Assembly: GCA_045576815.1 (NCBI GenBank)
Contig: JAZNHD010000055.1
Coordinates: 14,868-78,867 of the forward strand
Direction: 5' to 3'
DNA: 64,000 nt
From: Eubacteriales bacterium
GTDB lineage: Bacteria > Bacillota > Clostridia > Oscillospirales > CAG-272
Numbering within the stretch: the stretch's first letter is position 1; each line of letters starts with the position of its first letter. Shown piece by piece: positions 2,712 to 47,492 of the stretch. Under the pieces are notes generated by a model. That model ran no database searches, was not told the DNA's origin, and saw only the letters and a list, made by a program, of their open reading frames with translations. Position numbers and translations under genes: made by a program.

Positions 2712-2741
2712 AAAAACTCCGTGAAATTTGGTCTTTCTATT

Positions 2742-2770
2742 ATATTATCACACCGAAAGCAAAAATTCAA
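2742..2770 (-). promoter_or_regulatory. Putative sigma-A promoter of malQ
   Basis: Minus strand reads TTGAAT, 17 nt, TGaTAATAT (extended -10), about 30 nt upstream of the malQ ATG. Confidence 0.4.
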
Positions 2771-2846
2771 GTAGAAAGCCCCTCCTCGCTCATACAAATT
2801 TTACCGCGCCGCCCCTAAAATTCGTCTTAATTTTTGCTTTTTTCTA

Positions 2847-2875
2847 TTGACATCTCTGATTCTTTATGTTATAAT
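2847..2875 (+). promoter_or_regulatory. Putative sigma-A promoter of the pyr operon
   Basis: TTGACA (2847-2852), 17 nt, TATAAT (2870-2875). Confidence 0.55.
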
Positions 2876-2912
2876 ATTACGAATTATACAGATAGGAGAT
2901 AGGAGACCGAGC

Positions 2913-4166
2913 ATGACTACACTCTTCCGCGGAGCAAAGGTTTACGAAAACGGCGTTATAAAAGTTAAGGATATGCTTTTTGACGGTGTTTCTGTTTCCC
3001 TTTTCACCGGTGACGTATCTGCTTTTGACCCTGACCGTATTTTTGATAATATTGCTATTTTCCCCGGTTTTTGTGATGTTCACGTGCATCTCAGAGAGCC
3101 GGGCTTTTCTTATAAAGAGGATATAGCAAGCGGCACGCGCGCCTCGGCAAGAGGCGGCTACACAACCGTCTGCGCTATGCCAAATCTTTCGCCGCCGCCC
3201 GACAGTCCCGAGACTCTCGGGGTAGAGCTTTCGGCAATAGAGCGCTCAGCGGTGATAGAGGTCCTGCCATACGGCACGATAACGAAGGGGCAAAACGGCT
3301 CTGAGCTTTCCGATATGGAGGGTATGGCTGATAAGGTTGTCGCCTTCTCGGACGACGGCCGCGGTGTTCAGACCGCCCCCCTTATGCGTGAGGCTATGTC
3401 GGAGGCAAAGCGCCTCGGTAAAATGATAGTGGCTCACTGCGAGGATAACGCTCTTCTTTTCGGCGGATATATCCACGACAGCGAATACGCAAGGACGCAC
3501 GGACACAAAGGAATATCCTCGGAGAGCGAGTGGGGTCAGATAAAGCGCGATATCGAGCTTGTGCGTGAAACAGGCTGCCAGTACCACGTCTGCCACATCT
3601 CAACAAAGGAATCGGTCGAGCTTATAAGAGAGGCAAAGCGCGAGGGGCTGCCCGTCAGCTGCGAGACAGGACCTCACTACATTCTCCTTGACGATACGGT
3701 GCTTGAGGAGGACGGTCGGTTTAAGATGAACCCGCCCCTACGTTCCCCCTCGGACAGAGAAGCAATTCTCGAGGGTGTGCTCGACGGAACAATAGAGGTT
3801 ATTGCCACCGACCACGCACCGCACACCGCAGAAGAAAAGTCAAAGGGCCTAAAAGGCAGTCCTTTCGGAGTTGTGGGAATCGAAACGGCTTTTCCGCTAC
3901 TTTACACCAACCTTGTCCTAACAGGCCTTATGCCTCTCGAGGAGCTTATATCGCTCCTTGCGGACAAGCCGAGAGAAAGATTCGGCATAACGGGCGACAG
4001 AGGCTTCACCGTCTTCGACCTTGGATGTGAATATGATATAAATCCCGACGAGTTTCTCTCTAAGGGAAAGAGCACACCCTTCAAGGGTGCTCGCGTAGCC
4101 GGCAGGTGCCTTGCTACCGTATACGGAGGCAAGGCCGCTTACCTTGCAGATGATTTTTGTGAATAA
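2913..4166 (+). CDS. pyrC: Dihydroorotase
   Basis: Metal-binding DVHVHLREPG motif and a ...TDHAPH... motif. I chose the ATG at 2913 (MTTLFRGAKVY) with the GGAGATAGGAG RBS rather than the track's upstream TTG. Confidence 0.85.
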   Translation: MTTLFRGAKVYENGVIKVKDMLFDGVSVSLFTGDVSAFDPDRIFDNIAIFPGFCDVHVHLREPGFSYKEDIASGTRASARGGYTTVCAMPNLSPPPDSPETLGVELSAIERSAVIEVLPYGTITKGQNGSELSDMEGMADKVVAFSDDGRGVQTAPLMREAMSEAKRLGKMIVAHCEDNALLFGGYIHDSEYARTHGHKGISSESEWGQIKRDIELVRETGCQYHVCHISTKESVELIREAKREGLPVSCETGPHYILLDDTVLEEDGRFKMNPPLRSPSDREAILEGVLDGTIEVIATDHAPHTAEEKSKGLKGSPFGVVGIETAFPLLYTNLVLTGLMPLEELISLLADKPRERFGITGDRGFTVFDLGCEYDINPDEFLSKGKSTPFKGARVAGRCLATVYGGKAAYLADDFCE

Positions 4167-4182
4167 TTAGGAGGAAAAATAA

Positions 4183-7100
4183 ATGGCAAAGAGAACCGAC
4201 ATTAAAAGAGTTATGATTATCGGCTCAGGCCCCATCGTCATAGGACAGGCGGCAGAGTTCGACTACGCAGGCACGCAGGCCTGCCTTGCGCTCAAAGAGG
4301 AGGGCTACGAGGTTATCCTTGTTAACTCAAACCCCGCAACCATAATGACCGACACCACTATTGCAGACAAGGTGTATATGGAGCCCCTGACTCTTGAATA
4401 CATCGCAAAAATTATAAGATACGAGCGTCCCGACGCCATAGTTCCCGGCATCGGCGGCCAGACCGGTCTTAACATGGCTATGCTTCTTGAGAAAAAGGGT
4501 ATTCTTAAGGAAAGCGGCGTTGAGCTTCTCGGCACCTCGTCGGCGAGCATTGAGCGCGCGGAGGACAGAGAGCTCTTCAAGGAGCTTTGCGAGTCTATCG
4601 GTGAGCCTGTTATTCCCTCTGACATCGCCAATACCGTTGAGGAGGCGGTTGAGGTCGCCGACAGGATTGGCTACCCCGTAGTACTCCGTCCGGCGTTCAC
4701 CCTCGGCGGCACAGGCGGCGGCTTTGCTTACAACAAAGAGGAGCTTCTTGAGCTTGCGGTCGGCGCGCTTGACGCATCTCCCGTAAAGCAGGTGCTTGTT
4801 GAGAAGAGCGTTAAGGGATATAAGGAAATTGAGTTTGAGGTTATGCGAGACTCCGCAGATAACGCCATCACCATCTGCGGTATGGAGAACATCGACCCCG
4901 TCGGCGTACACACCGGTGACAGTATGGTTGTCGCTCCCATTATGACACTTAACGACCACGACCTTAAGATGCTCAACGACTCTGCTATAAAGCTTATCCG
5001 CGAGCTTAAGATAGAGGGCGGCTGTAACGTACAGTTCGCGCTCAACCCGAACTCCTCGGAGTACTATCTTATCGAGGTTAACCCGAGAGTTTCGAGAAGC
5101 TCGGCACTCGCTTCCAAGGCATCAGGCTACCCCATTGCAAGAGTTACAGCCAAGATTGCTCTCGGCATGACGCTTGACGAGATTGAGGTTGCGGGCACGA
5201 AGGCTTCCTTTGAGCCGAAGCTCGACTACGTCGTTGCAAAGTTCCCGCGCTTCCCCTTTGATAAATTCACCTCCGTCCCCAACAAGCTCGGCACGCAGAT
5301 GAAGGCTACCGGTGAGTGTATGGGCATCGGCTCAAACCTTGAGGAATGTATACTGAAGTCGGTGCGCTCGCTTGAGATAGGCGTATGCCATCTCCATATG
5401 GCAAAGTATGATGAGAAGGCTGACGGAGAGCTTCTTGAATATCTCTCCGATTTCCACGATGACAACGCTTTCGTTATCGCGGAGCTTCTCCGCCGCGGCC
5501 ACGCCGTAGGCGAAATCTGCGATATAACTAAAATTACCCCCTTCTTTATCGAGTCCTTCAAAAAGATTACCGATATGGAGGCGACCCTTAAGGCAAACAA
5601 GGGAGATGCGGCAACACTCCGCGAGGCAAAGAAGATGGGCTTTGGCGACAAGTTCATTTCAAAGCTCTGGGAGACCTCCGAGCTTAAGGTGGTTGATATA
5701 AGAAAGAAAAACGGAATTGTTCCCACCTTCCGTATGGTTGACACCGCGCACGTCGGCGCATACACTCCCTATTTCTACTCCTCCTACACCGGTGAAAACC
5801 AGTCCCGTCTTACCGACAGAAAGAAGGTTCTCGTGCTCGGTGCAGGTCCTATCCGTATCGGTCAGGGCGTCGAGTTCGACTACTCCACCGTTCACGCGGT
5901 TAACACAATCAGAAAATGCGGTTACGAGGCAATTATCATAAACAATAACCCCGAGACCGTTTCCACCGACTACACGACGGCAGACAAGCTCTACTTCGAG
6001 CCCCTCACACCCGAGGACGTTATGAACGTTATCGATTTTGAAAAGCCGGACGGAGTTATCGCCTCTCTCGGAGGCCAGACGGCAATAAACCTTGCAGAGC
6101 CGCTTGCTGCACGCGGTGTCAAGATTATCGGCACCGACTGCGAGGCCATTGACAGAGCGGAAAACCGTGACGCATTTGAGAAAATCTTAAGCTCACTCGG
6201 TATTCCTCAGCCTAAGGGTCAGGCTGTTACCAAGATTGAGGACGGCGTTAGAGTGGCAAAGGAGGTTGGATACCCTGTTCTCGTCCGTCCGAGCTTCGTG
6301 CTTGGCGGCCGTGCTATGCAGCTTGTCGGTAACGAGGCTCAGCTACGCCACTACCTTAGAACCGCGGTTGAGATTGACGAGGACAAGCCTGTGCTTGTCG
6401 ACCACTACATTCAGGGTAAGGAGGTTGAGGTTGACGCAATCTGCGACGGACACGACGTGTTTGTCGGCGGCATTATGGAGCTCGTTGAGCGTACCGGCGT
6501 ACACTCCGGCGACTCTATATCGGTTTATCCCGCATTCTCCATATCCGACAAGGTAAAGGGCAAGATTCTCACCTACTCGAAAATGCTCGGCCTTGCAATA
6601 GGCATTGTCGGTCTGTTTAATATTCAGTTTATAGTTGACGAGCATGATGACGTGTACATCATTGAGGTCAACCCCCGTTCGTCAAGAACCGTTCCCTTCC
6701 TCTCGAAGTCAACGGGCTTCTCGCTTGCGGATATCGCAACCGAGGTTATCCTCGGCAAGTCCTTAAAGGAGCTCGGAATCTTCACCCTCTATCCCGAAGA
6801 AAAGAAGAGATGGTACTGCAAGGTTCCCGTCTTCTCCTACAGAAAAATCAACGGCATTGACGCATATCTCTCCCCTGAGATGAAGTCAACGGGCGAAGCA
6901 ATCGGATATGACGACGACCTCTACCGTGCATTCTACAAGGCGCTTCAGGCATCGGGAATGAATCTGCAGAATTACGGCACAATTCTCGTTACCATTGCCG
7001 ACAAGGACAAGGAAGAGGCTCTTCCTCTCGTCCGTCGCTTCTACAATCTTGGATTTAACATTGAGGCAACCGTTGGTACAGCGAAGTTCTTAAAGGAACA

Positions 7101-13630: not shown

Positions 13631-13892
13631 AAAACAAAAAGCCCCGAGCAGTATTTTTCTCTGCTCGGGGCGAATAAATCGCGGTGCCACCCGAATTCGA
13701 GGTCGTAAGACCTCCTTTTTTCGCACTTGTATGCGCTGTACTGATAACGGTGCCGGCCGTCGGAGCCTACTTGTAAAAACTTTCGGTCCGCCCTCGGAAG
13801 CCCATTCACCACACCCCTTTATACCGCAATCACACCGCCTGCGGCTCTCTTTGATAAAGCGTGTGAGGCTACTCCTCTTCCTCACAGGTTAT
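13631..13892 (-). promoter_or_regulatory. T-box leader, probable Trp specifier (UGG)
   Basis: Minus strand carries the AGAGA bulge, the GGUGUGA distal loop, a specifier loop GAA-UGG-G, and the T-box sequence GGGUGGCACCGCG (13692-13680). A terminator follows (13671-13641) with a U-tract. Confidence 0.85.
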
Positions 13893-13898
13893 GCAAAG

Positions 13899-17512: not shown

Positions 17513-19246
17513 TTACTGTTCTGCACCGTCTAAGGTCTTAACAGTGATGTAGGCTTTGAATTTTTCCATCGCAATTTCGTAATAGGCGTTCTCCTCGAAG
17601 TATTCGTCGTCAAAGTAATCAAAGAGAACCTCTTTGCGCTCTTCAACAAGCTCTGCGTATTCATCGTCGGTATAATCTTCTCTATCCTTGTTTATGCTCT
17701 CAAGGAACTGAGTAATATACTCGTCAAGATAACTCTCTTTAACCTCCTCGACCTTTGAAAGAAGCTCGTCAGATGTAGGAGCGATGTTTTCCTTTCTCAT
17801 TATATAATAAAGAATGAGTCTTTCTCTGACGAGGTTCTCCGACATCATGCGCAGCACAAGACGCCAATCCTTGCCCGAATAATTTACGTTCAAGTATATA
17901 GCCGCGTATTCATCAAGAGTGCGGCAGGTAACGCTCTGCCCTGTCAACGAGTCGGTTATTATACCGCCTGAAGCCTCGTACTTATCTTTTACGTCATCGT
18001 AATACTCCTGGTAAACCTCGTTAACCTTTTTGGTCGGGTAGTTCTTTATATTCACCTTCTCTGTATAGTGCTTCCAGATAGCCTTCTCGAGAAGATTATC
18101 ATAATTCTCCTCGTAAGCCTCAAGAAAATACTCCTCGAGAAAGGCTCTGTACTTTTCGACAAGGCTTTCACCGGTATATTCATTAAGCTCTTCAAGCGTT
18201 ATGAGCGCCGTATCCTCAGAGAGCATTTCGGTTATAAACGCATCGTCGAACTCGGGAGTTTCGTAAGAAACCACGCCCGCTATATAAAGCTCAAAATAAA
18301 CCGTCTTGTTTCTATATACATCTAGGGCTGAATTGTTAGACATGTAATCGTAAGGGAAATAGCCCGAAACCGTATAAGGCTCACCCTCGCACCTAGTAAC
18401 GAAGTCCACCTTGAGCTTTGTGTAGTTGTAGATTTTACCCCCCTTTTCCGACTGTGCAGTCTTCTCCGCGCCGCCGATAGTGGCACCTTTAATCGCTGCT
18501 ATAAAACCCTCGCCGAACTTATCCGTTACGTCAGGGTCGCCAAGGTCAACTCTTACCGATTCATAGTTTTTTGCATTCTTCTCATTATCACCCTGAAGAA
18601 GCTCGGTATAGCTTACGTAAACGACGTCACCGGCCGCAACGGTACCCTCTTTTATCTTATTAAATGATGGTGTGTCGTTGGGTGTTATACCCGCATTTAC
18701 AATTGCCAGCTCAACGCCCTGAGCAAACAACAGACTGCTCGCGCCAAGCTCGAGAGATGCCGGGTCGTCCGCGGCAAAGTTGTTCTCAATTTCTTTCTCC
18801 TTGCCGTCCTCTTTGATGTAGGCTCTGTACCATAAGGAGATTTTATCACCCTCGTCTATCGTAACGTCTTTTTTATAAACACCGTCGTAAAGCGGCGTTT
18901 TACTCCTCTTTGTGTAAAGGTAGTAAAGGATTGCCGAATCAACATCCTCGGACTTCGGTCTTGCTATATTAATGCTAAGCTCTATGTCCTTATATACGTC
19001 CTCGGGTACGTCAAGATAATACGACAGATCAGAGGTGAGATAATTAAAGTTCTTCTCTCTCGTGTCGTTTATAAGCGGTATGAAAAGTATCAGAGAGCTG
19101 ACTATAATCGTGACGGCCAGAAGTGCTGCGATAACGGCAAACACGATTTTCTCAGCGCTCAGCTTCGTCGGTGCAGCCTGATTATTTTTCACCGCTCTTA
19201 CGCTCTGATTTTTACCCGGCGCTTGTTTGTATCCTTTTTTACTCAT
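17513..19246 (-). CDS. Membrane-anchored trigger-factor/FKBP-like foldase-like protein
   Basis: 577 aa from ATG 19246 (MSKKGYK..., RBS AAAGAGGAAG). It has one N-terminal TM helix. The segment ...YFELYIAGVVSYETPEFDDAFI... resembles the end of the trigger-factor PPIase domain. The acidic helical C-terminus is paralogous in layout to 19758-21926. Confidence 0.55.
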   Translation of the reverse strand: MSKKGYKQAPGKNQSVRAVKNNQAAPTKLSAEKIVFAVIAALLAVTIIVSSLILFIPLINDTREKNFNYLTSDLSYYLDVPEDVYKDIELSINIARPKSEDVDSAILYYLYTKRSKTPLYDGVYKKDVTIDEGDKISLWYRAYIKEDGKEKEIENNFAADDPASLELGASSLLFAQGVELAIVNAGITPNDTPSFNKIKEGTVAAGDVVYVSYTELLQGDNEKNAKNYESVRVDLGDPDVTDKFGEGFIAAIKGATIGGAEKTAQSEKGGKIYNYTKLKVDFVTRCEGEPYTVSGYFPYDYMSNNSALDVYRNKTVYFELYIAGVVSYETPEFDDAFITEMLSEDTALITLEELNEYTGESLVEKYRAFLEEYFLEAYEENYDNLLEKAIWKHYTEKVNIKNYPTKKVNEVYQEYYDDVKDKYEASGGIITDSLTGQSVTCRTLDEYAAIYLNVNYSGKDWRLVLRMMSENLVRERLILYYIMRKENIAPTSDELLSKVEEVKESYLDEYITQFLESINKDREDYTDDEYAELVEERKEVLFDYFDDEYFEENAYYEIAMEKFKAYITVKTLDGAEQ

Positions 19247-19257
19247 ATCTTCCTCTT

Positions 19258-19692
19258 TTATATAAGAGCATCGGCAAATGAAGTCGCAAGCGCATCGCAA
19301 CGCTCGTTATAATCATGTCCGTTGTGCCCCTTTACCCATTCAAATTTAACCTTATGCTGACCTACAAGCTCATAGAGTCTCTCCCAAAGGTCGGGATTTT
19401 TCAGCTCGTCACGTCCTCTGCGCCAGCCCTTTTTACGCCAGGATTCAACCCAGCCCTCGTTGAAGGCATCAACGAGATATCTAGAATCCGAGAAAAGAGT
19501 AACCGAGCAGCTCTCGCGCAGAGCCTCAAGTCCGCGTATCGCGGCAGTAAGCTCCATGCGGTTATTTGTGGTCTCCGCCTCTCCGCCCGATAGCTCGCGC
19601 TCGTGAGGACCGTACACTAAAATCGCACCCCAGCCTCCGCGGCCAGGGTTGCCTCTGCACGCACCGTCAGTATATATTTTAACTTCCTTCAT
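19258..19692 (-). CDS. rnhA: Ribonuclease HI
   Basis: 144 aa starting [25 protein letters not shown], with ...TNNRMEL... and ...[12 protein letters not shown] motifs. Confidence 0.9.
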
Positions 19693-19757: not shown

Positions 19758-21926
19758 TTAGTCGTCTGCACCTTCGTCTCCGTCAGCATCCTCGACGGTA
19801 ACGTAGGTAAGTCCCTCGTATCTGAAATCAATATAAAGAACTCCATCGCGCTCGGTGTACTTAGGATGGTTGTGTCCGTCAACTCTCTCGATAGAGGTGC
19901 TCATGAGGTAATTCATAATCTTCTCAAACTGGAGAGCGGTACGGAGATTTGCCTCGCCGTAATCCGAGATAAAGCTTTCGTACGCAGCGTTGCCAATATC
20001 GTTCTTGTACTGATTGAACACGTCGTTGGTAACAAGGAATCTGTCAGCCTCTTTCTTTGCGTTCTCGTAAGCCTTGGTTTCGGACTCCTCAGCCTTGGTA
20101 ACAGCCTCGTTATATTTCTCTTCGTCCTCGTAATCCTCACGGTCAACCTCTATATCGAAGCGGCCGGCAGTCTTATCAAGCTCCGCCCATGCGGCAAGGT
20201 CAACCTTTGCGTCGTCCTTAAGAGCCTTTGCAACTACGTAAATCTTGATGACGGGAGCAATCTTTTCCTTAGCTTCCTTGGTGATTGCAGCCTCAATGCC
20301 ACGCCATATATCGCCGTCTATTTCCTTTGCCTCGGCGTGCGACTTTAAGAAGTCCGCAAAGTCGCCCTTATGGAAGGAATATTCGGACTCAGAGCCGTGC
20401 TTATCCTTATAGAAGGAGTATTCGTACGCCTCAAAGAGACGGTTATATGCCTCATTGAGAACCGACTCGGGATACGCGGTTACCTCAACGCTTTCATCGA
20501 TAGCCTCGTAAACCTTCTTAGCAACAGCCTTGATAACCGAGGTGTTGTACTCCTCCTCAAGACCGTGTCTTACGTCCTCATCATACTCCGAGGTAATAGC
20601 CTCCGCAATAGGCTTTGCGCCGTCAGCGGTAGAAGCGGCGGTAAGAATTTCTGTGATTGCAGTGTCAGCTGCGGTCTTCTTAGCAGTCTTGAGTGCCTCG
20701 GTAGCATCCTCAAGCGCATCCTTCTGTGCCTCAGTAGCGTTCTTGCCCGCTGCATCTACTGCAGCCTTTGCGCTGTCATACGCCTCTTTGGCGGTCTTAA
20801 CTGCCGCATACTTTGCATCCTCGGTGGTACCGGCATAAATCTTACCAAGCTCCTCTACGAGCTCAGAAAGCTTCTTTCCGCCGGTAACGGTGTAGCTCTC
20901 ATCCTCAAAAATCTCAAGTGAGCTCGTCTTAATAGCCTCGCCGAGAATGTACTTAAGAAGAGCGGTAGCGTCATACTCGGGAACGTGGATTATAGAAACA
21001 GGGTAAACGTGGTAGGTAAGCTCAAGGTCTTTAAGCTCTACTTCAACGTCGTTTATATCCCTTACCTTTTTGGTTTCTTTGTAGCGAACCATCGAGAAGC
21101 TTGCAAGATCCTCTCCGGCGTTCTTAACTATCCATTTAACCACAACGTTGGAGTAGGTAAGAGTATTACCCGACGCATCGGTGGTGATGTATTTGTTTGC
21201 ACCATCCTTAAACGTTGCTGCGTTGCCAACTGAGTTTTTGTACTCTGCCTTGATTATCTCGGTAAGAAGGCCATCCTCAGAGCCGAGCGTAACCTCTTTA
21301 TACTTTACGGTAGAGGAATCCTTATTGCCTGCAGAGTCAACCTTATCAAGCTTGTAGGAGATAACAACCTTCTGACCGTCTTCGAGCTTTGTGCCCTTGG
21401 TGGAGTCGGTAGAATAAGCAGCCGAAAGAGTCTTGCCCTTAAGCGCTGCCGCGAGCTTCTCTCTGAACTCGTTTGCAAGCTCGTCCTCCGAGCTTACAGT
21501 CTTGCCAAGCTCTATAACGTGAGAAGACTTATACGAGGAGTTGTTAAGACGCGCCTCCTCCATCAAGTCGAAGAATACGGTGTGAGTCGTGCCGTCCTTT
21601 TCTACCGTTGCGTACATGTTATAGTAAACTACGTCGCGCTCACCGATAACTCCGCTAAATTCCTTGTCGCCGACAGCAACAACCTTGTCGGTTAAGGTGT
21701 TATAGATTTTCTCAAGCACCTTCTGTGCTCTTACCGTCTCGTCGGTTGTGAAATCAAAATCCTCAATTTCAATAGCAGCAAGCGCCTCGGCAAAAGCATC
21801 CTTGTCAAACGCTGCGTACTGTGTGAGGTCTTCTTCCGCGTAATTGAATACGGTCGAGCCACAGCCTGCAAGTGCCATAACCGCCATAACTACTACGAGA
21901 ACGAAAGCAATAATTCTCTTTTTCAT
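19758..21926 (-). CDS. Lipoprotein, trigger-factor/FKBP-like foldase-like
   Basis: 722 aa with the lipobox signal MKKRIIAFVLVVVMAVMALAGC. The segment ...LTYHVYPVSIIHVPEYDATALLKYI... parallels the PEFDDAF segment of the neighbouring paralog. It also has an Ala/Lys-rich helical region and an acidic C-terminus. Confidence 0.55.
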   Translation of the reverse strand: MKKRIIAFVLVVVMAVMALAGCGSTVFNYAEEDLTQYAAFDKDAFAEALAAIEIEDFDFTTDETVRAQKVLEKIYNTLTDKVVAVGDKEFSGVIGERDVVYYNMYATVEKDGTTHTVFFDLMEEARLNNSSYKSSHVIELGKTVSSEDELANEFREKLAAALKGKTLSAAYSTDSTKGTKLEDGQKVVISYKLDKVDSAGNKDSSTVKYKEVTLGSEDGLLTEIIKAEYKNSVGNAATFKDGANKYITTDASGNTLTYSNVVVKWIVKNAGEDLASFSMVRYKETKKVRDINDVEVELKDLELTYHVYPVSIIHVPEYDATALLKYILGEAIKTSSLEIFEDESYTVTGGKKLSELVEELGKIYAGTTEDAKYAAVKTAKEAYDSAKAAVDAAGKNATEAQKDALEDATEALKTAKKTAADTAITEILTAASTADGAKPIAEAITSEYDEDVRHGLEEEYNTSVIKAVAKKVYEAIDESVEVTAYPESVLNEAYNRLFEAYEYSFYKDKHGSESEYSFHKGDFADFLKSHAEAKEIDGDIWRGIEAAITKEAKEKIAPVIKIYVVAKALKDDAKVDLAAWAELDKTAGRFDIEVDREDYEDEEKYNEAVTKAEESETKAYENAKKEADRFLVTNDVFNQYKNDIGNAAYESFISDYGEANLRTALQFEKIMNYLMSTSIERVDGHNHPKYTERDGVLYIDFRYEGLTYVTVEDADGDEGADD

Positions 21927-25030: not shown

Positions 25031-26704
25031 TTACAAGAATTTGCGGCGTATTCGCACGGCAACCGCCGCCACCGCTACCGCCAGCGGTATAAGCATAAGA
25101 CCGACGGTAATTCCTATAGCATCACTCGAGGAAAGACCGTGCCATACAAGCACCTGCTTTCCCGTGCTTTTATCGGTTGCATATACGTCGGTTGCGGATA
25201 TATCCGACTGATAAAGTATCTTTCCAAACATGTTTTTGGAGTTCTGTGAAAGTCCGCCAAGGTCAATCGACGCATATCCGTCGGTCCTTACCATATTGGA
25301 AATGAGCGAGGACATTACGTCGTAGTTCGCGTAAGACGGCTCACCGAGCACCTCACTTGAGAAGAAGTCGGGGCTGTTCACGCAGAAAATATAGGAATAT
25401 TTATTCTCTCGGGTGTAAGAATCAAGCTCAAGCCTTGTCGAAACGGCCGCAAGATGCATCTTTCCGCGGCGGTCAAGGTCGGTATATCCACCGCCTGCCG
25501 AAAGCTCGTGTGCCGAGGCATCAGGCGAGGAATAGAAGAGTGGCGCATAGTTTCGCGATGTCGAATAGGTTCCGGCCTCGGGCACCGACCATCTATCGCC
25601 AAACGAGCATTCGACGTACCCCGTGTTAGGAATTACCGTGAGAGGAGCAGATGAAAGCGAGGCAAAATTACCGTAAATCGAGTAGCCGTAGCTGTCCTCA
25701 CTCGTGTCGTATACACCGATAATATCAGTATACGTGCCCTCCTCGTTCTGAAGCGAGCCTCCCTCGTCACTAACGAGAGAGGTACCGAAAGCAAAGCCCC
25801 ACTCGTAAAGAAAATCATCAAAATTTTCAAGCGGCCTTGAGTAATCGCGCGCCACCATTATAGAGCCGCTCGTTTTTACGAGATAGCGGTCGAGCTTATC
25901 AGTCTCGGACTCGTAAGAATACTCACCGAGCTTGCCGTCCGGAACAGTGAAATCATGACTCGGATTGTTTATTATGAGAAGAACGCAATCCTCGGGAATA
26001 TCCTCCTCTGCAAGATTAAGAAGTCCAACGTCCATTCCGCGCTCAACAACAAGGTCGTAAAGATAAGCGGTCTCAAGGCTCATTGCACTCTCGGGGTCCT
26101 CTATATCGTAATACCTTTCACCGTGATTGGTAACAAAATAAGCCTTAGGCTTCTCAACCGCGGTGACCGAAACGAGAAGCGAGGCAAGCCTATACTCACC
26201 GTTATAGGAATAATACTCTCCGCTGACCTTGTACCAAAGACTCGCGGCATTAAGTATTCTGTATTTATCGCCATAGGATATGATTATATCCGTGGGGGAG
26301 ACGGTGGAGAGGGAGGTGGTTTTGTATTCCGCAACCGCCGTGGGATTATAAGTAATGTTCACCGTCTCTACCGAGAGATTTTCAAGAGCGGCATCAAGCT
26401 TTAGCAGCGAAAGATACGGAACTCTCGTCATCTGTGAACCGATAAGTGTATCGGGGTCTGAGCAGAAGATTACCCTAACCTCCTTTTCTCCGTCCTCAAG
26501 CTCGTCGATAAAGGCGCATTCCTCACGCATTGCCTCCGAGACGGTATAAAGCCCCTCAGGAGTCATATCGAGATAGAGAGAGCCGTAAAGTCCGACGTGC
26601 TTCATCAAAATGTTGAGAAGAAAAAGCCCGACAATGCCGACAAGGGTAATAAGCGCAAAAATCTTCCCTCTTTGCTTTCTGTTTTTAAGTAGGTTTATTT
26701 TCAT
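25031..26704 (-). CDS. GldG-like ABC-transporter auxiliary component (paralog 2)
   Basis: 557 aa with N- and C-terminal TM helices bracketing a large external domain. This is GldG/ABC_transp_aux topology, downstream of an ABC-2 permease. Confidence 0.65.
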   Translation of the reverse strand: MKINLLKNRKQRGKIFALITLVGIVGLFLLNILMKHVGLYGSLYLDMTPEGLYTVSEAMREECAFIDELEDGEKEVRVIFCSDPDTLIGSQMTRVPYLSLLKLDAALENLSVETVNITYNPTAVAEYKTTSLSTVSPTDIIISYGDKYRILNAASLWYKVSGEYYSYNGEYRLASLLVSVTAVEKPKAYFVTNHGERYYDIEDPESAMSLETAYLYDLVVERGMDVGLLNLAEEDIPEDCVLLIINNPSHDFTVPDGKLGEYSYESETDKLDRYLVKTSGSIMVARDYSRPLENFDDFLYEWGFAFGTSLVSDEGGSLQNEEGTYTDIIGVYDTSEDSYGYSIYGNFASLSSAPLTVIPNTGYVECSFGDRWSVPEAGTYSTSRNYAPLFYSSPDASAHELSAGGGYTDLDRRGKMHLAAVSTRLELDSYTRENKYSYIFCVNSPDFFSSEVLGEPSYANYDVMSSLISNMVRTDGYASIDLGGLSQNSKNMFGKILYQSDISATDVYATDKSTGKQVLVWHGLSSSDAIGITVGLMLIPLAVAVAAVAVRIRRKFL

Positions 26705-40579: not shown

Positions 40580-40588
40580 AGGCAAACG

Positions 40589-40614
40589 GGCAGAGTAAAA
40601 GCTCTGCCTTTTGC
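40589..40614 (+). terminator. Intrinsic terminator after the M16C peptidase gene
   Basis: Hairpin GGCAGAG/CTCTGCC followed by TTTTGCT. Confidence 0.6.
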
Positions 40615-40715: not shown

Positions 40716-40744
40716 TTGACTTTATCTACAACATATTGTATAAT
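40716..40744 (+). promoter_or_regulatory. Putative sigma-A promoter of the pfl locus
   Basis: TTGACT (40716-40721), 17 nt, TGTATAAT (extended -10, 40739-40744). Confidence 0.6.
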
Positions 40745-40835
40745 GTTATATTGCTAATACCTAAATATTGCGCTCGGCAAAAGCGACCCTTGTCGCCTGC
40801 CGATGACGGCTAAATTTGAAAAGAGAGGAACAAAA

Positions 40836-42935
40836 ATGACACCTTATTTCGATAAGGCTTGGGAGGGCTTTGCTGACGGCACCTGGACAAAAGAGGTAAA
40901 TGTACGAAGCTTTATCAAGCACAATTATACTCCCTATTACGGTGACGAGAGCTTCCTTGAGGGAGCTACCGAGAGGACAAACGAGCTTTGGAGAGATGTT
41001 CTTGAGCTCTTCAAAAAGGAACGCGAGGCGGGCGGTGTTCTTGACATGGACACCAAGGTAATTTCTACGATAACCTCACACGCCCCTGCCTATCTTGACA
41101 AAAATAAGGAAACCATAGTCGGATTTCAGACGGACAAGCCTTTAAAGCGCGCGCTTATGCCTTACGGTGGCATTCGCATGGCGGAGAAGGCGTGTCACGA
41201 CAACGGCTACGAGCTTGACCCCGAGGTTAAGGAATTTTTCACAACTCACAGAAAAACTCATAACGCAGGCGTTTTTGACGTATATACTCCCGAGATGCGC
41301 GCCTGCCGTTCGAGCCACATAATCACCGGTCTTCCCGATGCTTACGGCCGCGGCAGAATTATCGGTGACTACCGCCGTGTTGCCCTCTACGGTGTTGACC
41401 GTCTTATAGAGGACAAGATGCAGCAGAAGGAGACCACAAATTCTGCTATGTATTCTCACATTATCCGTGAGCGTGAGGAAATCTCGGAGCAAATACGCGC
41501 GCTTGAGGATCTCAAGACAATGGCTCTCTCCTACGGCTACGATATTTCAAAGCCCGCAACCAACACCAAGGAAGCTATCCAGTGGCTTTACTTCGGCTAT
41601 CTTGCCGCAGTTAAGGAGCAGAACGGCGCAGCAATGTCGCTTGGCAGAACCTCGACGTTCCTTGATATTTACTCTGAGCGTGACCTTAAGCGCGGCACAT
41701 TCACCGAGCGAGAGCTTCAGGAGTTCGTCGACCACTTTATTATGAAGCTCCGTCTTGTAAAGTTTGCGAGAACACCCGAGTACAACGCACTTTTCTCCGG
41801 CGATCCTCAGTGGGTTACCGAGTCTATCGGCGGTGTCGCAATCGACGGAAGACCTCTCGTTACAAAGATGTCTTACCGTTATCTTCACACTCTTGAAAAT
41901 CTCGGAGCAGCCCCCGAGCCTAATCTCACGGTGCTCTGGTCTGTAAGACTCCCCGAGGCGTTTAAGCGCTACTGCGCAAGACTTTCCATCGAAACCTCAT
42001 CGGTTCAGTATGAGAACGACGATCTTATGAGATTTACTCACGGCGACGACTATGCTATCGCCTGCTGTGTATCCTCTATGAGAGTCGGCAAGGAGATGCA
42101 GTTCTTCGGTGCGAGAGCCAACCTTGCAAAGTGCCTTCTCTATGCAATAAACGGCGGTGTTGACGAAATTTCCGGTAAGCAGGTAGGACCGAAATACCGC
42201 GCTATCACCTCCGAATATCTCGACTATGACGAGGTAATGGAAAAATACGACGCTATGATGGAATGGCTCGCAGGCGTTTACGTCAACACCCTCAACGTCA
42301 TTCACTATATGCACGATAAATATTGCTACGAGAAAATTCAGATGGCGCTTCACGACCAGCACGTAACCCGTTGGTTCGCTACCGGTATTGCAGGTCTTTC
42401 GGTTGTTGCCGACTCGCTCTCAGCCATTAAGTACGCACGCGTCAAGGTTATCCGCAACGAAGCGGGTGTTGCTACAGATTATGAGGTAGAAGGAGACTTC
42501 CCGAAATACGGCAACGACGATGACAGGGTTGATACCATCGCTTACGATATAGTCCACAGATTTATGGGTCATATCAAGAAAAACCACACCTATCGCGATA
42601 GCGTACCCACCACTTCCATTCTTACAATCACCTCTAACGTCGTTTACGGCAAAAACACCGGAGCGACACCCGACGGACGCAAGATGGGCGAGGCGTTTGC
42701 CCCCGGTGCTAACCCCATGCACAGACGTGACACTCACGGTGCGATAGCATCGCTCGCGTCGGTTGCAAAGCTGCCGTTCGTTGATGCCCGTGACGGAATT
42801 TCCAACACCTTCTCAATTATTCCCGGCGCACTCGGAAAGGACGACAAGATTTTCGCCGGAGACATTGAGGTCGACATCGATTGCGGTAGCGGCGCTTGCT
42901 CTACCCCTACACTCTTTGAGGGTCTCGACAGATAA
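40836..42935 (+). CDS. pflB: Pyruvate formate-lyase, catalytic body lacking the glycyl-radical domain
   Basis: 699 aa from ATG 40836 (RBS AAGAGAGGAA). The active-site motif [28 protein letters not shown] is present. The ORF ends after ...PGALGKDD plus a 29-aa unrelated tail, and contains no RVSGY motif. Confidence 0.85.
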
Positions 42936-42960
42936 AAATTAAAAAGAAAAGGAGCTACCT

Positions 42961-43203
42961 ATGGCAGCAACGAAAAATCAGATAGACAACCTCGTAACCC
43001 TGCTCGATGGCTATGTCGAAAAGGGCGGTCATCACCTTAACGTTAACGTTTTCACCCGCGAAACCCTTCTAGACGCGCAGGCTCACCCGGAGAAATATCC
43101 GCAGCTTACCGTGCGCGTTAGCGGTTATGCCGTTAACTTTATAAAGCTCACAAAGGAACAACAGGACGAGGTTATCTCGCGCACGTTCCACGATAAGATG
43201 TAA
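42961..43203 (+). CDS. Autonomous glycyl-radical domain protein (GrcA/YfiD-like), equivalent to the missing PFL C-terminus
   Basis: 80 aa reading ...[64 protein letters not shown]. It has its own GGAG RBS 6 nt upstream of the ATG. Confidence 0.85.
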
Positions 43204-43209
43204 AAAAAG

Positions 43210-43241
43210 GGGTCTATTTTTCGGAATAGACCCTATTTATT
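43210..43241 (+). terminator. Hairpin plus T-rich tract between the radical-domain gene and pflA
   Basis: 9-bp hairpin GGGTCTATT/AATAGACCC followed by TATTTATT. This may be a partial terminator. Confidence 0.5.
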
Positions 43242-43263
43242 AAATTAACACGGGGTATACCAT

Positions 43264-44016
43264 ATGATAAAAGGGTATATACATTCAAAGGAGTCATTCG
43301 GCACGGTAGACGGCCCGGGTGTAAGATACGTCCTCTTTATGCAGGGCTGTCCTATGCGCTGCATTTACTGTCATAACCCTGACACGTGGCAGTTCGGTGT
43401 CGGCGAGGAAATAACCGCCGACGAGGTTATAGCCGAATTTGAAAAAAACCGCCCATTTTATAAGGGCGGCGGAATAACCGCGACGGGCGGCGAGCCGCTT
43501 ATGCAAACCGAGTTTCTTACCGAGCTTTTCTGCAAGGCACACGAGCGAGGAATACACACCTGCATTGACACATCGGGTGTCACCTATAATGAAAACAGCG
43601 AGACGTATTTAGAAAAGCTCGATTTGCTTATGAAATACACCGACCTCGTTATGCTCGATATAAAGCATATAAATTCCGAGGTTCATAAATCTCTTACGGG
43701 AAAGCCTAATGAAAACATTATCGCCTTTGCCCGCTACCTTGAAAAAAGGGAAATACCCCTATGGGTGCGCCACGTGATAGTAGAGGGCTACACAGACAGC
43801 CCCGATGACCTATATCGCCTTGGCAGATTTATTGGCACGCTGAAAAACCTGAAGGCACTTGACGTGCTGCCCTATCACTCAATGGGTGAGACAAAGTATA
43901 AGGCTCTGGGACTCGATTACGCCTTAGAGGGACTCCCTTCGCTTTCAAAGGAATCCGCCGCCGAGGCAAAGGAGCACATCATTAAAGGAATCCGCGAAGC
44001 AAGAAAAAACAGATAA
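43264..44016 (+). CDS. pflA: Pyruvate formate-lyase activating enzyme (radical SAM)
   Basis: The GCPMRCIYCHNPDTW cluster motif is present, in 250 aa. Confidence 0.9.
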   Translation: MIKGYIHSKESFGTVDGPGVRYVLFMQGCPMRCIYCHNPDTWQFGVGEEITADEVIAEFEKNRPFYKGGGITATGGEPLMQTEFLTELFCKAHERGIHTCIDTSGVTYNENSETYLEKLDLLMKYTDLVMLDIKHINSEVHKSLTGKPNENIIAFARYLEKREIPLWVRHVIVEGYTDSPDDLYRLGRFIGTLKNLKALDVLPYHSMGETKYKALGLDYALEGLPSLSKESAAEAKEHIIKGIREARKNR

Positions 44017-44034
44017 ATGTAAACATTTGATAAC

Positions 44035-44068
44035 AAAACCCCGAGTTTTCTCTCGGGGTTTTGTTTTT
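44035..44068. terminator. Bidirectional intrinsic terminator (pflA / ileS)
   Basis: Hairpin AAAACCCCGAG/CTCGGGGTTTT with flanking A and T runs, between convergent genes. Confidence 0.8.
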
Positions 44069-44071
44069 GCT

Positions 44072-47000
44072 TTATGCCTTTTCTACGGAAATAGTTACCT
44101 TTTCTCCGTTGATGTTCCACTCCTTTGCGTGAGCAAGAGTCTCTCCGACGGCAAGGGATACGCCAAGCGTCTCGTCCTTGATTTCCTCAGCGTTGCGCTC
44201 TGCAATCGCTGCAACCGTGTCGTTGCCGGAGAAGGCGATTTTAATATTATCCATAACCTCGAAGCCGGAATCCTTACGCATCGTCTGAATCTTCGAGATT
44301 ATCTCGCGCACGTTGCCTTCTTCGATAAGCTCGGGAGTAAGATTCTTGTCTATTACGACAGTCACGCCCCTGTCACCGAGAGACTCAAAGCCCTCCTTCT
44401 TCGTCATCTCGATAAGAAGGTCCTCCTCAGCGAGAGTAATCGTCTCACCGTTCGCCTCAAAGCTGATGGCGCCGGCCCTGCGAAGCTCGTCCATTGCGGC
44501 ATTGCCGTCAAGGGTGGAGAGGATATTTCTTATAGCACCGAGATGTTTTCCGTACTTCGGACCTACGGTGCGAAGCTGGGGCTTGAAGGTGTAGGTAGTA
44601 AACTCGGTTACGTTATCGGTAAACTCGACCTCTTTGACGTTAAGCTCCTCGGCGATAACCGAAATAAAGCTATCATCAGGCGTTTTATCTGCCTTGACGT
44701 ACATCTTTCTCACGGGCTGGCGGTTCTTGATAGCCGCAGCGTTACGGCAGGCTCTGCCAAGCACGACAACGTCTACAACCTCTTCCATATTCTCTTCAAG
44801 CGACTTGTCTATCATAGACTCGTCGGCGGTCGGATAATCGCAAAGGTGAACCGACTCGGGCGCGGACTTATCAACCGAGCATACGAGGTTGCGGTAGATG
44901 TCCTCAGTCATGAAAGGCACGAGGGGTGCTGCCACCTTGGCAACGGTAACGAGCGCGGTGTAAAGGGTCATATACGCATTGACCTTATCGGTGGGCATAT
45001 CCTTAACCCAGAAACGCTCACGGCTACGGCGTACATACCAGTTCGAGAGCTGGTCAACAAAGTCCTCAAGTACCCTCGTAGCCTCGGTAATCTTGTATGC
45101 GTCAAGATACGCGTCCACCGATTTAACAGCGGAATTTAGCTTAGAGAGAATCCACTTATCCATAACAGTAAGATTCTTCTTATCAAGCGTGTATTTCGTC
45201 GGGTCAAAGCCGTCAATGTTAGCGTAAAGCACGTAGAACGCATAGGTGTTCCAGAGCGTACCCATAAACTTTCTCTGTCCCTCAACTACCGCCTCACCGT
45301 AAAAACGGTTGGGAAGCCAGGGAGCAGAGTTTGAATAGAAATACCAGCGAATAGCGTCAGCACCATACTGCTCAAGCGCTTCAAAGGGGTCAACTGCGTT
45401 GCCCTTTGATTTCGACATCTTCTGTCCCTCTTTGTCAAGCACGTGACCGAGAACGAGTACGTTTTTGTAGGGGGCCGTGTCAAAAATAAGCGTGGAAATC
45501 GCCATAAGTGAGTAGAACCAACCGCGAGTCTGGTCTACACCCTCGCTGATGAAGTCTGCGGGGAACTGAGACTCAAATACCTCTTTATTCTCAAAGGGAT
45601 AGTGCCACTGCGCAAAAGGCATCGAGCCGGAGTCAAACCAGCAGTCGATAACCTCTGGCACGCGGCGCATCTCACCGCCGCACTCGGGACAAACGAGAGT
45701 TACCTCGTCGATAAAGGGTCTGTGAAGCTCAATATTCTCGGGGCAATTCTTCGACATCTCGCGAAGCTCTGCGATAGAGCCTATCGAGTGGCGGTGACCG
45801 CAGGAGCATTCCCAGATATTAAGAGGCGTGCCCCAATATCTGTTACGGGAAAGTCCCCAGTCCTGAACGTTTTCAAGCCAGTCGCCAAATCTGCCTTTAC
45901 CGATATTCTCGGGAATCCAGTTTACAGTGTTATTATTCTTTATGAGATTGTCACGCACCTCGGTCATCTTGATAAACCAAGTATCGCGAGCGTAATAAAT
46001 AAGTGGCGTATTACATCTCCAGCAGTGCGGATAATCGTGCTCGAACTTAGGGGCGGCAAAGAGCTTGCCCTCTTTATCGAGGTCCACAAGGATTACAGGG
46101 TCCGCCTTCTTAACGAAGATGCCGCCGTAGGGGGTGTCGGGTGTCATCTCGCCCTTTCCGTCAACGAACTGAACGAAGGGAAGGTCGTAGCGTCTTCCAA
46201 CACGGGAGTCGTCCTCACCGAACGCGGGGGCGATATGAACGATACCCGTACCGTCAGACATCGTAACGTAGCTGTCAGCGGTAACGTAATGTGCGCGCTT
46301 CTTCTGCTTTCTTGCAGCCTCGGCGGTGCATTCCCAAAGAGGCTCGTACTCGCGGCCCTCGAGAGCTATACCCTCCATCTCCTCTAGTATCTCGTATGCG
46401 GGTGCTCCCTCCTCACGCTCAAGCGAGCCGAGCACAGAATCAAGCAGCGCCTTTGCCATATAATAAATTCTGCCGTCGGCAGCCGTAACCTTGCAGTAGG
46501 TGTCCTTCGGGTTTACACAGAGCGCGGTGTTCGAAGGGAGAGTCCAGGGTGTAGTCGTCCACGCGAGGAAATAAGCATCCTCCCCCACACACTTAAAGCG
46601 CACAATCGCCGAGCGCTCCTTAACAGTCTTATAACCCTGTGCTACCTCGTGAGATGAAAGCGGAGTGCCGCAGCGCGGGCAGTAAGGAACAATCTTAAAG
46701 CCCTTGTATAGAAGGTCCTTGTCCCATATTTTCTTGAGCGCCCACCACTCCGACTCGATAAAGTCGTTGGTGTAGGTAACGTAGGGGTTATCCATATCCG
46801 CCCAGAAGCCAACCGTTCCCGAGAAGTCCTCCCACATTTCCTTATACTTCCACACCGACTCCTTGCAGTGCGCGATAAACGGCTCAAGACCGTAGCTCTC
46901 TATCTGGTCCTTACCGTCAATTCCGAGCTTCTTCTCAACCTCAAGCTCAACGGGCAGGCCGTGAGTATCCCATCCTGCCTTGCGGAGGACGCGTCTACCC

Positions 47001-47230
47001 TTCATCGTCTGGTATCTCGGCACCATATCCTTGATAACACGGGTAAGCACGTGACCGATATGCGGCTTGCCGTTTGCGGTGGGAGGACCGTCAAAGAATG
47101 TGTAGTTATCACACCCCGAGCGAAGATTAATGCTCTTTTCAAAGACGCGGTTTTCCTCCCAGAAGCGTCTCGTTGCCTTTTCTCTTTCAACAAAATTTAA
47201 GTTTGTTGAGACCTTTTCGTAAATTTCCAT
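44072..47230 (-). CDS. ileS: Isoleucyl-tRNA synthetase
   Basis: 1052 aa with the HIGH-type motif PPTANGKPHIGHV, a KMSKSKGN motif and a CP1 editing domain. Confidence 0.95.
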   Translation of the reverse strand: MEIYEKVSTNLNFVEREKATRRFWEENRVFEKSINLRSGCDNYTFFDGPPTANGKPHIGHVLTRVIKDMVPRYQTMKGRRVLRKAGWDTHGLPVELEVEKKLGIDGKDQIESYGLEPFIAHCKESVWKYKEMWEDFSGTVGFWADMDNPYVTYTNDFIESEWWALKKIWDKDLLYKGFKIVPYCPRCGTPLSSHEVAQGYKTVKERSAIVRFKCVGEDAYFLAWTTTPWTLPSNTALCVNPKDTYCKVTAADGRIYYMAKALLDSVLGSLEREEGAPAYEILEEMEGIALEGREYEPLWECTAEAARKQKKRAHYVTADSYVTMSDGTGIVHIAPAFGEDDSRVGRRYDLPFVQFVDGKGEMTPDTPYGGIFVKKADPVILVDLDKEGKLFAAPKFEHDYPHCWRCNTPLIYYARDTWFIKMTEVRDNLIKNNNTVNWIPENIGKGRFGDWLENVQDWGLSRNRYWGTPLNIWECSCGHRHSIGSIAELREMSKNCPENIELHRPFIDEVTLVCPECGGEMRRVPEVIDCWFDSGSMPFAQWHYPFENKEVFESQFPADFISEGVDQTRGWFYSLMAISTLIFDTAPYKNVLVLGHVLDKEGQKMSKSKGNAVDPFEALEQYGADAIRWYFYSNSAPWLPNRFYGEAVVEGQRKFMGTLWNTYAFYVLYANIDGFDPTKYTLDKKNLTVMDKWILSKLNSAVKSVDAYLDAYKITEATRVLEDFVDQLSNWYVRRSRERFWVKDMPTDKVNAYMTLYTALVTVAKVAAPLVPFMTEDIYRNLVCSVDKSAPESVHLCDYPTADESMIDKSLEENMEEVVDVVVLGRACRNAAAIKNRQPVRKMYVKADKTPDDSFISVIAEELNVKEVEFTDNVTEFTTYTFKPQLRTVGPKYGKHLGAIRNILSTLDGNAAMDELRRAGAISFEANGETITLAEEDLLIEMTKKEGFESLGDRGVTVVIDKNLTPELIEEGNVREIISKIQTMRKDSGFEVMDNIKIAFSGNDTVAAIAERNAEEIKDETLGVSLAVGETLAHAKEWNINGEKVTISVEKA

Positions 47231-47261: not shown

Positions 47262-47492
47262 AAAAACCCCGAATGGCGAAGGGCCATTCGGGGCGAATTA
47301 TCGCGGTACCACCCGAAGTTGCGGAAAATCCGCATCTCTTTCGCTTTAACGCAGCGAACGTCGCCGCCTAAGTTTCCCTCAGCGGCACAGCTCGTGGAGT
47401 GATTTTCGTGCCATATCCCCATCGGCTCGCACCAACCGCCGACTCTCTGAAGGTTCTATAAGCACTACTCTTTCCGTCATTGCCTTTATGCT
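47262..47492 (-). promoter_or_regulatory. T-box leader, probable Ile specifier (AUC)
   Basis: Minus strand carries the AGAGA bulge, the GGUGCGA distal loop, a specifier loop GAAA-AUC-A, and the T-box GGGUGGUACCGCG (47314-47302). A terminator CCCCGAAUGGC/GCCAUUCGGGG plus U-tract follows. Confidence 0.9.

Follow-up and report, generated by a model that had tools for sequence, protein, structure and literature searches.

A 64-kb stretch of DNA from a Eubacteriales bacterium (contig JAZNHD010000055.1; "the window" below means this whole stretch) contains what is probably a three-gene operon for a pyruvate formate-lyase (PFL) composed of two polypeptides, in which a body of 699 amino acids (aa) is followed by a separately translated 80-aa radical subunit and then by the gene of the activase, pflA. 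Many gut and rumen anaerobes use PFL as a main way of turning pyruvate into acetyl-CoA and formate, and its glycyl radical is irreversibly destroyed by oxygen. An earlier reading of this DNA from its letters alone (the sequence-only reading) had proposed a PFL encoded in two pieces, and when the open reading frames (ORFs) were read, both ORFs and their motifs were found as it had described them. The features of the locus are collected in Table 1.

The body was identified as a PFL by several measures. Counted from its first ATG, the ORF spans 40803-42935; the ATG at 40836 is preferred as the start because AGAGGA lies 7 nt upstream of it and close homologues (e.g., P0122) begin there. The PFL model TIGR01255 (744 positions, curated full-length cut-off 994.2 bits) scores the body at 1104.7 bits over profile positions 1-665, and the Pfam family PF02901 at 733 bits. 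In the alignment to Escherichia coli PflB, the body covers residues 9-681 and thus ends at about PflB residue 680. An AlphaFold2 model of the body, built on a diverse alignment, reached a predicted local distance difference test score (pLDDT) of 90.7 and a predicted template-modeling (TM) score of 0.91; a version built from 67 sequences at 85-95% identity was set aside (pLDDT 52). Superposed on E. coli PFL (2pfl_A), the model gives a TM score of 0.94 and a root-mean-square deviation of 2.1 Å over 679 columns with 64% identity. The catalytic pair C410/C411 is invariant in all 67 of the close body homologues used for counts of invariance. The one feature that the body alone lacks is the RVSGYAV loop on the same polypeptide as the barrel, which is found only when the two genes are taken together. 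Length is also conserved, with 118 of the 120 closest homologues at 697-710 aa and the two longer ones explained by assembly duplications. Of the database proteins that had looked like longer homologues, P0124 (805 aa), P0144 (821 aa), and P0001 (111 aa) proved to be assemblies with internal tandem duplications rather than fusions. Judged by its sequence, then, the body retains every PFL hallmark and is under strong constraint, unlike what one would expect of a dead remnant.

The small ORF supplies what the body lacks. It consists of a docking helix, the last barrel strand HHLNVNVF, the glycyl-radical loop RVSGYAV, and a C-terminal helix; from the sequence, the radical glycine was assigned to G55 (codon 43123-43125). 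Its match to TIGR01255 covers profile positions 664-744 and exactly complements profile positions 1-665, which the body covers, and its alignment to PflB covers residues 683-758, following residues 9-681 of the body, so that the earlier claim that this ORF provides the missing C-terminus held on both counts. The cut runs through the Pfam Gly_radical family, of which the body holds profile positions 1-51 and the small ORF positions 49-106 (PF01228, 85 bits). At 169 bits, the small ORF exceeds the curated cut-off (158 bits) of NF038360, the model for "autonomous glycyl radical cofactor GrcA3," with residues 4-80 matching profile positions 2-78 of 78, and its close homologues bear corresponding names in the databases. 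It fails the GrcA model TIGR04365 (94 against 170 bits), which matches only residues 21-80 at profile positions 67-126, and the GrcA2 model (104 against 145 bits). Residues 21-78 correspond to YfiD 68-125, while YfiD 1-67 has no counterpart. The sequence-only reading had placed the break at the N-terminal boundary of the GrcA/YfiD homology. That homology starts at residue 21 of the small ORF, so that the break in fact precedes it by about 20 residues and the small subunit also carries the docking helix. The small ORF has thousands of database relatives, and most of the 120 closest matches listed are exactly 80 aa long.

To survey the arrangement, loci were scanned in one genome per species, which returned at least 598 matching stretches. 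All locus counts below refer to the best 80, chosen by similarity to the small ORF, and both the counts and the trees inherit this selection; 76 of the 80 have readable sequence upstream of the small gene, and gene-context counts use these 76. The small gene encodes 78-83 aa and not a single cysteine in 80/80 loci, is free-standing in 79/80 species loci, and lies directly downstream of a body without a radical domain in 75/76. A Shine-Dalgarno-like motif precedes the ATG of 78 of the 80 small genes, and the dedicated ribosome-binding site and start codon pointed out earlier for the window thus recur. The split is therefore not confined to one genome, as expected of a constitutively two-piece PFL.

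Close relatives provide the sharpest comparison. A 95%-identical relative, available in two independent ENA assemblies (L102 and L103), has the same stop, spacer, and start in both, in line with the earlier argument against a simple sequencing frameshift. Synteny is shared across the locus, from a PreP peptidase gene through a 699-aa body, a 22-nt spacer, an 80-aa small gene, the hairpin, and pflA to ileS, and the sole change in length is a 3-nt indel within the spacer, which is therefore non-coding. In the window itself, in-frame stops close both frames, with TAA at 42933-42935 in the frame of the body and a further stop at 42940 in the frame of the small ORF. Comparing the window with ten related loci, we found that synonymous sites are saturated (pS, the proportion of synonymous differences, 0.63-1.0), whereas the nonsynonymous proportion pN is low: 0.035-0.10 for the small gene, 0.07-0.11 over the final 100 codons of the conserved part of the body, and 0.06-0.24 for the tail that ends the body. 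These substitution patterns indicate purifying selection on the body, the tail, and the small gene.

Among relatives, the spacer measures anything between -17 and more than 100 nt and occurs in all three relative frames. In a rough neighbor-joining tree with four canonical one-piece PFLs for comparison, the split bodies form a single clade. The system was found in Oscillospiraceae, Acutalibacteraceae, and Ruminococcus, in Christensenellaceae and Erysipelotrichaceae, in spirochaetes and Melainabacteria, in the Lachnospiraceae genera Blautia, Dorea, Sellimonas, Drancourtella, and Enterocloster, and in single metagenome-assembled genomes (MAGs) labeled Muribaculaceae and Atopobium.

Between the PFL-homologous part of the body and its stop codon lie 29 residues that the sequence-only reading could not align to PFL. 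They are not filler; they form a conserved module. The tail begins with an acidic, alternating, strand-like segment, continues with C683-x4-C688 (codons 42882-42884 and 42897-42899), and ends with PTLFEGLD; G675, D676, C683, G686, C688, T692, L693, F694, and D698 are invariant in 67/67 close homologues. In all split bodies, ALGK(D/E)(D/N) is followed by an alternating hydrophobic-acidic segment, x(I/V)FxGD(I/L)(D/E)(V/I/L)(D/E). Other lineages carry the cysteines as EPDCACCEPN, GCCE, or CxxC, and among 48 tails (47 loci and the window) we counted Cx4C in 22, CxCC in 9, CC in 5, CxxC in 3, and Cx6C in 3, with a mean net charge of -0.27 per residue. Overall, 75/76 loci carry the cysteine module, defined as the acidic strand with at least two close cysteines: it ends the body in 48, forms an ORF of its own in 26, and serves as a linker in 1, while the remaining locus has neither tail nor ORF of this kind. 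Searched against Pfam, NCBIfam, and PDB profiles, the module gave chance-level matches only.

The separate form is a third gene. In 26 loci, mostly of Ruminococcus, the body tail is short and free of cysteine, and the 200-400-nt "spacer" holds a gene of about 55-85 codons between body and radical subunit, roughly at locus positions 3600-4000 (L023, L027, L031, L033-L035, L038, L039, L042, L043, L048, L049, L051-L053, L058, L060-L063, L065, L066, L069, L073, L075, and L077). The C-terminal part of this mini-protein, VDTVNSTDCGxKGAC(A/C)QPTE, or ACQTPTLHEGLD in L042, matches the tail of the window body. Its residues 2-34 are homologous to residues 3-35 of the small subunit, which form the docking helix and strand (hhalign probability 94.8%, E = 5e-8), and its N-terminus also gives sub-threshold GrcA3 matches. 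Searched as a profile, the mini-protein yields at least 400 clusters; they are 66-81 aa long throughout, lack a Pfam domain, and are called "hypothetical protein" where they are named at all. We considered whether the mini-protein is the precursor of a ribosomally synthesized and post-translationally modified peptide, with the radical-SAM enzyme as its modifier, and set this aside, given that PflA is a standard 250-aa activase with full TIGR02493 coverage and that the sole carrier-peptide match has E = 0.15.

Individual loci show how the forms may be connected. In L044, an uncultured Ruminococcus MAG, the body is fused to a whole mini-protein (SPEELADLIDQLMAQGSGHVNI ... NSTDCGAKGACMQPTE), an arrangement that by its sequence stands halfway between a separate ORF and a tail. 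In L025 (Treponemataceae MAG JAZRJV010000003.1, locus positions 1841-4225), a single frame of 794 codons encodes a one-piece enzyme in which a linker of about 35 residues with NYGNCMSCDT leads to a radical domain 92% identical to the small ORF of the window; it is probably a secondary fusion, because it is nested inside the split clade on the body tree. Tail and separate-ORF forms are interspersed on that tree, and the module must therefore have been both fused and unfused repeatedly, yet was retained.

Conservation, purifying selection, and retention in 75/76 loci together indicate that the tail is functional. Our hypothesis is that it most likely serves as a latch or recognition element for an exchangeable radical subunit, possibly a redox- or metal-dependent one, as the close cysteine pairs suggest; it would then be the counterpart of residues 696-733 of oxygen-cleaved E. 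coli PFL. A tentative extension, which we hold to be possible rather than probable, is a three-component system in which the cysteine module would be a latch or placeholder that senses redox state or a metal. It would compete or cooperate with the radical subunit for the docking site on the barrel and thereby control the loading, release, and swap of the 80-residue radical cartridge.

Two of the alternatives deny that the locus encodes two separate products. A stop closely before the missing C-terminus, with the two ORFs in different frames, fits a sequencing or assembly frameshift or a decaying pseudogene of a one-piece pflB. We nevertheless consider this extremely improbable, since the same architecture stands in 79/80 loci and in two independent assemblies of a 95%-identical relative with a 3-nt spacer indel, the small ORF has its own Shine-Dalgarno motif and ATG in 78/80, stops occur in both frames, and purifying selection acts on body, tail, and small ORF alike; on these comparative sequence data both the frameshift and the pseudogene are rejected. 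Programmed recoding, by stop read-through or ribosomal frameshifting in the A-rich spacer, would yield a one-piece enzyme with the tail as a linker, and L025 demonstrates that a natural one-piece enzyme with a cysteine linker exists. We give this explanation next to no credence: the ribosome would need to get past two stops in two frames, the spacers vary from -17 to more than 100 nt over all three frames, a whole extra gene intervenes in 26 loci, and the strong Shine-Dalgarno motif and ATG are conserved.

The other two alternatives accept separate products and assign them other roles. The small protein could be a spare part only, which repairs a full-length PFL encoded elsewhere, with the body having another role or none. 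Its NCBIfam name, GrcA3, implies such a repair part, E. coli GrcA and T4 Y06I act in this way (PMC13450708), phage contigs carry GrcA3-like genes without a nearby body, and our search for pflB covered the 64-kb window. Against this stand the position of the gene directly behind a radical-less PFL body in 75/76 loci, usually with pflA next, a body that scores above the curated PFL cut-off with all hallmarks and strong constraint, and a small protein that has a docking helix YfiD lacks and is without the N-terminal region of YfiD. We therefore regard the spare-part explanation as unlikely. In this gene context, the small protein looks like an obligate rather than a repair subunit, because its adjacent partner has no radical domain in 75/76 loci. 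If the two-subunit enzyme is real, the tail could still be a passive leftover, either a vestigial linker or a degenerate radical domain. AlphaFold disorder, the variation of its length and cysteine spacing by lineage, the resemblance of the separate ORF to a half-degenerate copy of the radical subunit, and L030, which does without the module, all fit a leftover. Such a fate would hardly be expected to leave nine invariant positions, including both cysteines, in 67 homologues, pN/pS well below 1, at least two close cysteines in 75/76 loci from several phyla whether fused or separate, and at least 400 clusters of the separate ORF, and we judge it improbable.

Several observations weigh against a two-polypeptide PFL with a functional cysteine module and should be set beside the evidence above. 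Subunit association, activation on the 80-aa protein, and enzymatic activity are attributed by homology. The GrcA3 family is already recognized in annotation, and the NCBI name of the small protein ("autonomous glycyl radical cofactor GrcA3") is that of a spare part. No second intact pflB was found in a search that covered the window alone, and the genome may hold one elsewhere. L030 (Lachnospiraceae MAG JAZNXI010000078.1) is the one informative locus without the module: its tail (DDDVFFAGDALNVDGMKLD) is free of cysteine, and its spacer, 89 nt long, holds no gene for a mini-protein. AlphaFold shows no ordered docking of the tail, whose pLDDT of 28-35 in the isolated body model suggests that it is probably flexible there. 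Finally, the idea that the cysteine loop is a degenerate glycine loop was dropped: MAFFT had aligned the two, and hhalign gave no support, as only the N-terminal 33 residues of the separate ORF proved homologous to the small subunit.

Under the two-polypeptide reading, the enzyme would work as follows, by analogy with E. coli PFL, the PFL-activating enzyme, and YfiD. PflA would abstract a hydrogen from G55 of the small subunit and so form the radical. The small subunit would dock into the body, complete the barrel, and bring the G55 loop to C410/C411, after which catalysis would proceed as in a one-piece PFL (pyruvate + CoA -> acetyl-CoA + formate). Oxygen would cleave the 80-residue chain only, and the 699-residue body would be re-armed with a fresh one; we infer that the radical module would in this way be a cheap, replaceable subunit. 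The problem of binding would be solved twice, by the extra helix on the small subunit and by the latch that the tail or the mini-protein would provide.

Table 1. Features of the putative two-polypeptide PFL operon and its flanks (window coordinates)
Feature	Position	Strand	Basis or remark
Sigma-70-like promoter, TTGACT, 17 nt, TATAAT	40716..40744	+	11/12 matches; consensus match only
PFL body, 699 aa, full barrel without glycyl-radical loop	40836..42935	+	TIGR01255, PF02901, AlphaFold2 model
Catalytic Cys-Cys pair C410/C411 in IACCVS (= E. coli C418/C419)	42063..42068	+	Sequence
Conserved C-terminal tail of the body, 29 residues	42846..42932	+	Alignment of 76 loci
Intercistronic spacer, 25 nt, A-rich, AAAAATTAAAAAGAAAAGG	42936..42960	+	AAGGAG at 42949-42954, 6 nt before ATG
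Radical subunit (GrcA3-type), 80 aa	42961..43203	+	NF038360, TIGR01255, PflB alignment
Stem-loop, 11 bp, then ATTTATTAAA	43209..43244	+	Hairpin 43209-43234, weak T-rich tail
pflA, radical-SAM (S-adenosylmethionine) PFL-activating enzyme, 250 aa	43264..44016	+	TIGR02493, 296 bits; PF04055, PF13353
Strong intrinsic terminator, 14-bp stem with 7 GC pairs, then TTTGCTTTAT	44032..44065	+	Operon end
ileS, adjoins the PFL operon	44072-47230	-	Neighbor gene

The promoter-like site lies about 90 nt upstream of the body and comes after the terminator of the upstream peptidase gene (40588-40609). pflA scores well above the TIGR02493 cut-off of 231.75 bits. The hairpin that the sequence-only reading had noticed before pflA is present (43209-43234; -17.7 kcal/mol, z = -2.5 on folding); its T-tract is weak, and it is kept only in the closest relatives, perfectly so in L102/L103 despite wobble differences nearby, and is absent from most other loci. 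It is possibly a partial terminator or an mRNA stabilizer. The sequence-only reading had proposed that it would allow higher expression of body and radical domain than of the activase; such differential expression may be a trait of this lineage and is no general property of the system, as pflA starts about 0-20 nt after the stop of the small gene in most other loci.

Some observations concern the neighborhood of the operon. A 370-codon ORF at 44027-45139 (+) begins just after pflA and runs antisense inside ileS; it is almost certainly not a gene, because the strong terminator at 44032-44065 lies at its start. T-box leaders were detected at 47286-47489 (-; 120 bits), directly upstream of ileS, and at 13663-13894 (-; 119 bits). 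Elsewhere in the window lie three long ORFs at 17513-19300, 19758-21926, and 25031-26704 (all -; 595, 722, and 557 aa) for which Pfam gave no match at E <= 1e-5; they adjoin a 987-aa ORF with a weak DUF4340 match only.

Relatives of the small gene also occur in viruses. Twenty-one IMG/VR contigs (L081-L101) carry GrcA3-like small genes at 59-84% identity, and in 18 of the 21 no PFL body lies within 4 kb. The GrcA3-like gene of L093 (4001-4222) is a member of phrog_1209 ("unknown function"). Its surroundings are T4-like, with nrdD and nrdG before it and genes for an RNA ligase and for a polynucleotide kinase after it. L087 (3486-6258) and L100 (3042-5814) show the reversed order of nrdG-like activase, small radical gene, and PFL body, the latter with 65% identity to the body of the window; L086 has the usual order of body and then small gene. 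Under the tentative three-component extension, phages may exploit the system with radical cartridges of their own.

In the literature, spare-part proteins are described only as YfiD/GrcA for oxygen-cleaved PFL, and a natural split goes unmentioned, in a 2026 review of glycyl radical enzymes (PMC13450708); a 2025 review (PMC12288474) ascribes spare-part proteins to "some facultative anaerobes." Such reviews treat these proteins as a means of repair, with E. coli YfiD as the example. For the engineered pair of E. coli PFL(1-695) and YfiD(61-127), the complex was competent once activated, with poor binding and activation (Andorfer et al. 2021, PMC8683613), and the binding of YfiD to oxygen-cleaved E. 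coli PFL needs residues 696-733 as a recognition element (PMC8683613). Our full-text searches for a split, bipartite, or truncated PFL, for GrcA3, or for GrcA in Clostridia turned up no account of a natural split. As far as we found, then, a natural split PFL with an apparently obligate radical module and a conserved cysteine module has not been described.

The best matches to the body in the PDB are two chains named "Formate acetyltransferase," 38lb (739 aa, 1167 bits) and 38la (687 aa, 1110 bits), from an organism other than that of the window. Neither chain matches the small ORF, and therefore neither holds a radical domain; neither a radical-subunit chain nor a paper on them was found. After ALGK, 38lb continues with SGNVMFGECDMCEMK, a tail of about 52 aa with a close cysteine pair of the CxxC type (GECDMCEMK), and 38la ends at the ALGK position. 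Both must be recent, because they are absent from a PDB copy ending 2026-04-08. It thus seems that others are at work on a body of this kind, both with the tail and without it, and the novelty of the arrangement may be short-lived.

The arrangement concerns many organisms: the radical module has a gene of its own in at least several hundred species, among them members of Ruminococcus, Blautia, Dorea, Oscillospiraceae, spirochaetes, and Melainabacteria. If the two-polypeptide reading is right, these bacteria would offer a natural, well-behaved split for studying how the activase gains access to the buried glycine and how the radical domain enters and leaves the barrel, as well as a template for replaceable radical cartridges in other glycyl radical enzymes. 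Annotation would also need correction, as the body is now called a complete "formate C-acetyltransferase," the small subunit a "spare part," and the third protein "hypothetical." Should the three-component extension also be true, gut and rumen anaerobes would have built-in management of oxygen damage to a central fermentation enzyme.

Among other glycyl radical enzymes, benzylsuccinate synthase (BSS; beta and gamma subunits) and 4-hydroxyphenylacetate decarboxylase (HPAD; gamma subunit) have Fe-S subunits, and class III ribonucleotide reductase (RNR) has a Zn-Cys4 site before its glycine loop; such cysteine-rich accessory elements affect the dynamics of the radical domain or the formation of the radical. 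The PFL module resembles them as a small cysteine-bearing element beside the barrel, either separate or just before the radical domain. The known elements have at least four cysteines and a defined metal center, whereas the tail has two or three close cysteines (Cx4C, CxCC, or CC) and is very acidic and probably disordered; it does not contain a four-cysteine cluster motif and shows no sequence likeness to these elements and no family match.

The closest parallels remain the spare-part proteins and the engineered split. Like E. coli GrcA/YfiD and T4 Y06I, the small subunit is a free-standing RVSGYAV protein of a kind that, on current understanding, the PFL activase activates and that provides a PFL body with the radical loop in trans (PMC13450708, PMC8683613). 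In contrast to E. coli PflB with YfiD, the body of the window never has a radical domain of its own, and the small protein is apparently obligatory. It is 80 aa long rather than 127, lacks the disordered N-terminal 60 residues of YfiD, and has the helix corresponding to PFL 675-694; its gene is co-transcribed with those of the body and pflA, and the cysteine tail of the body has no E. coli counterpart. By its cut-off the small protein is a member of NF038360, and while the name GrcA3 denotes a spare part, the gene context points to the regular radical subunit of a radical-less PFL. As in the engineered split of E. coli PFL, a barrel minus its last strand and radical loop is completed by a minimal radical domain. 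The natural cut, however, lies about 15 residues earlier, the docking helix is kept on the small subunit, and the body has an extra tail; by analogy with the engineered pair, the helix or the tail could compensate for the lost covalent link.

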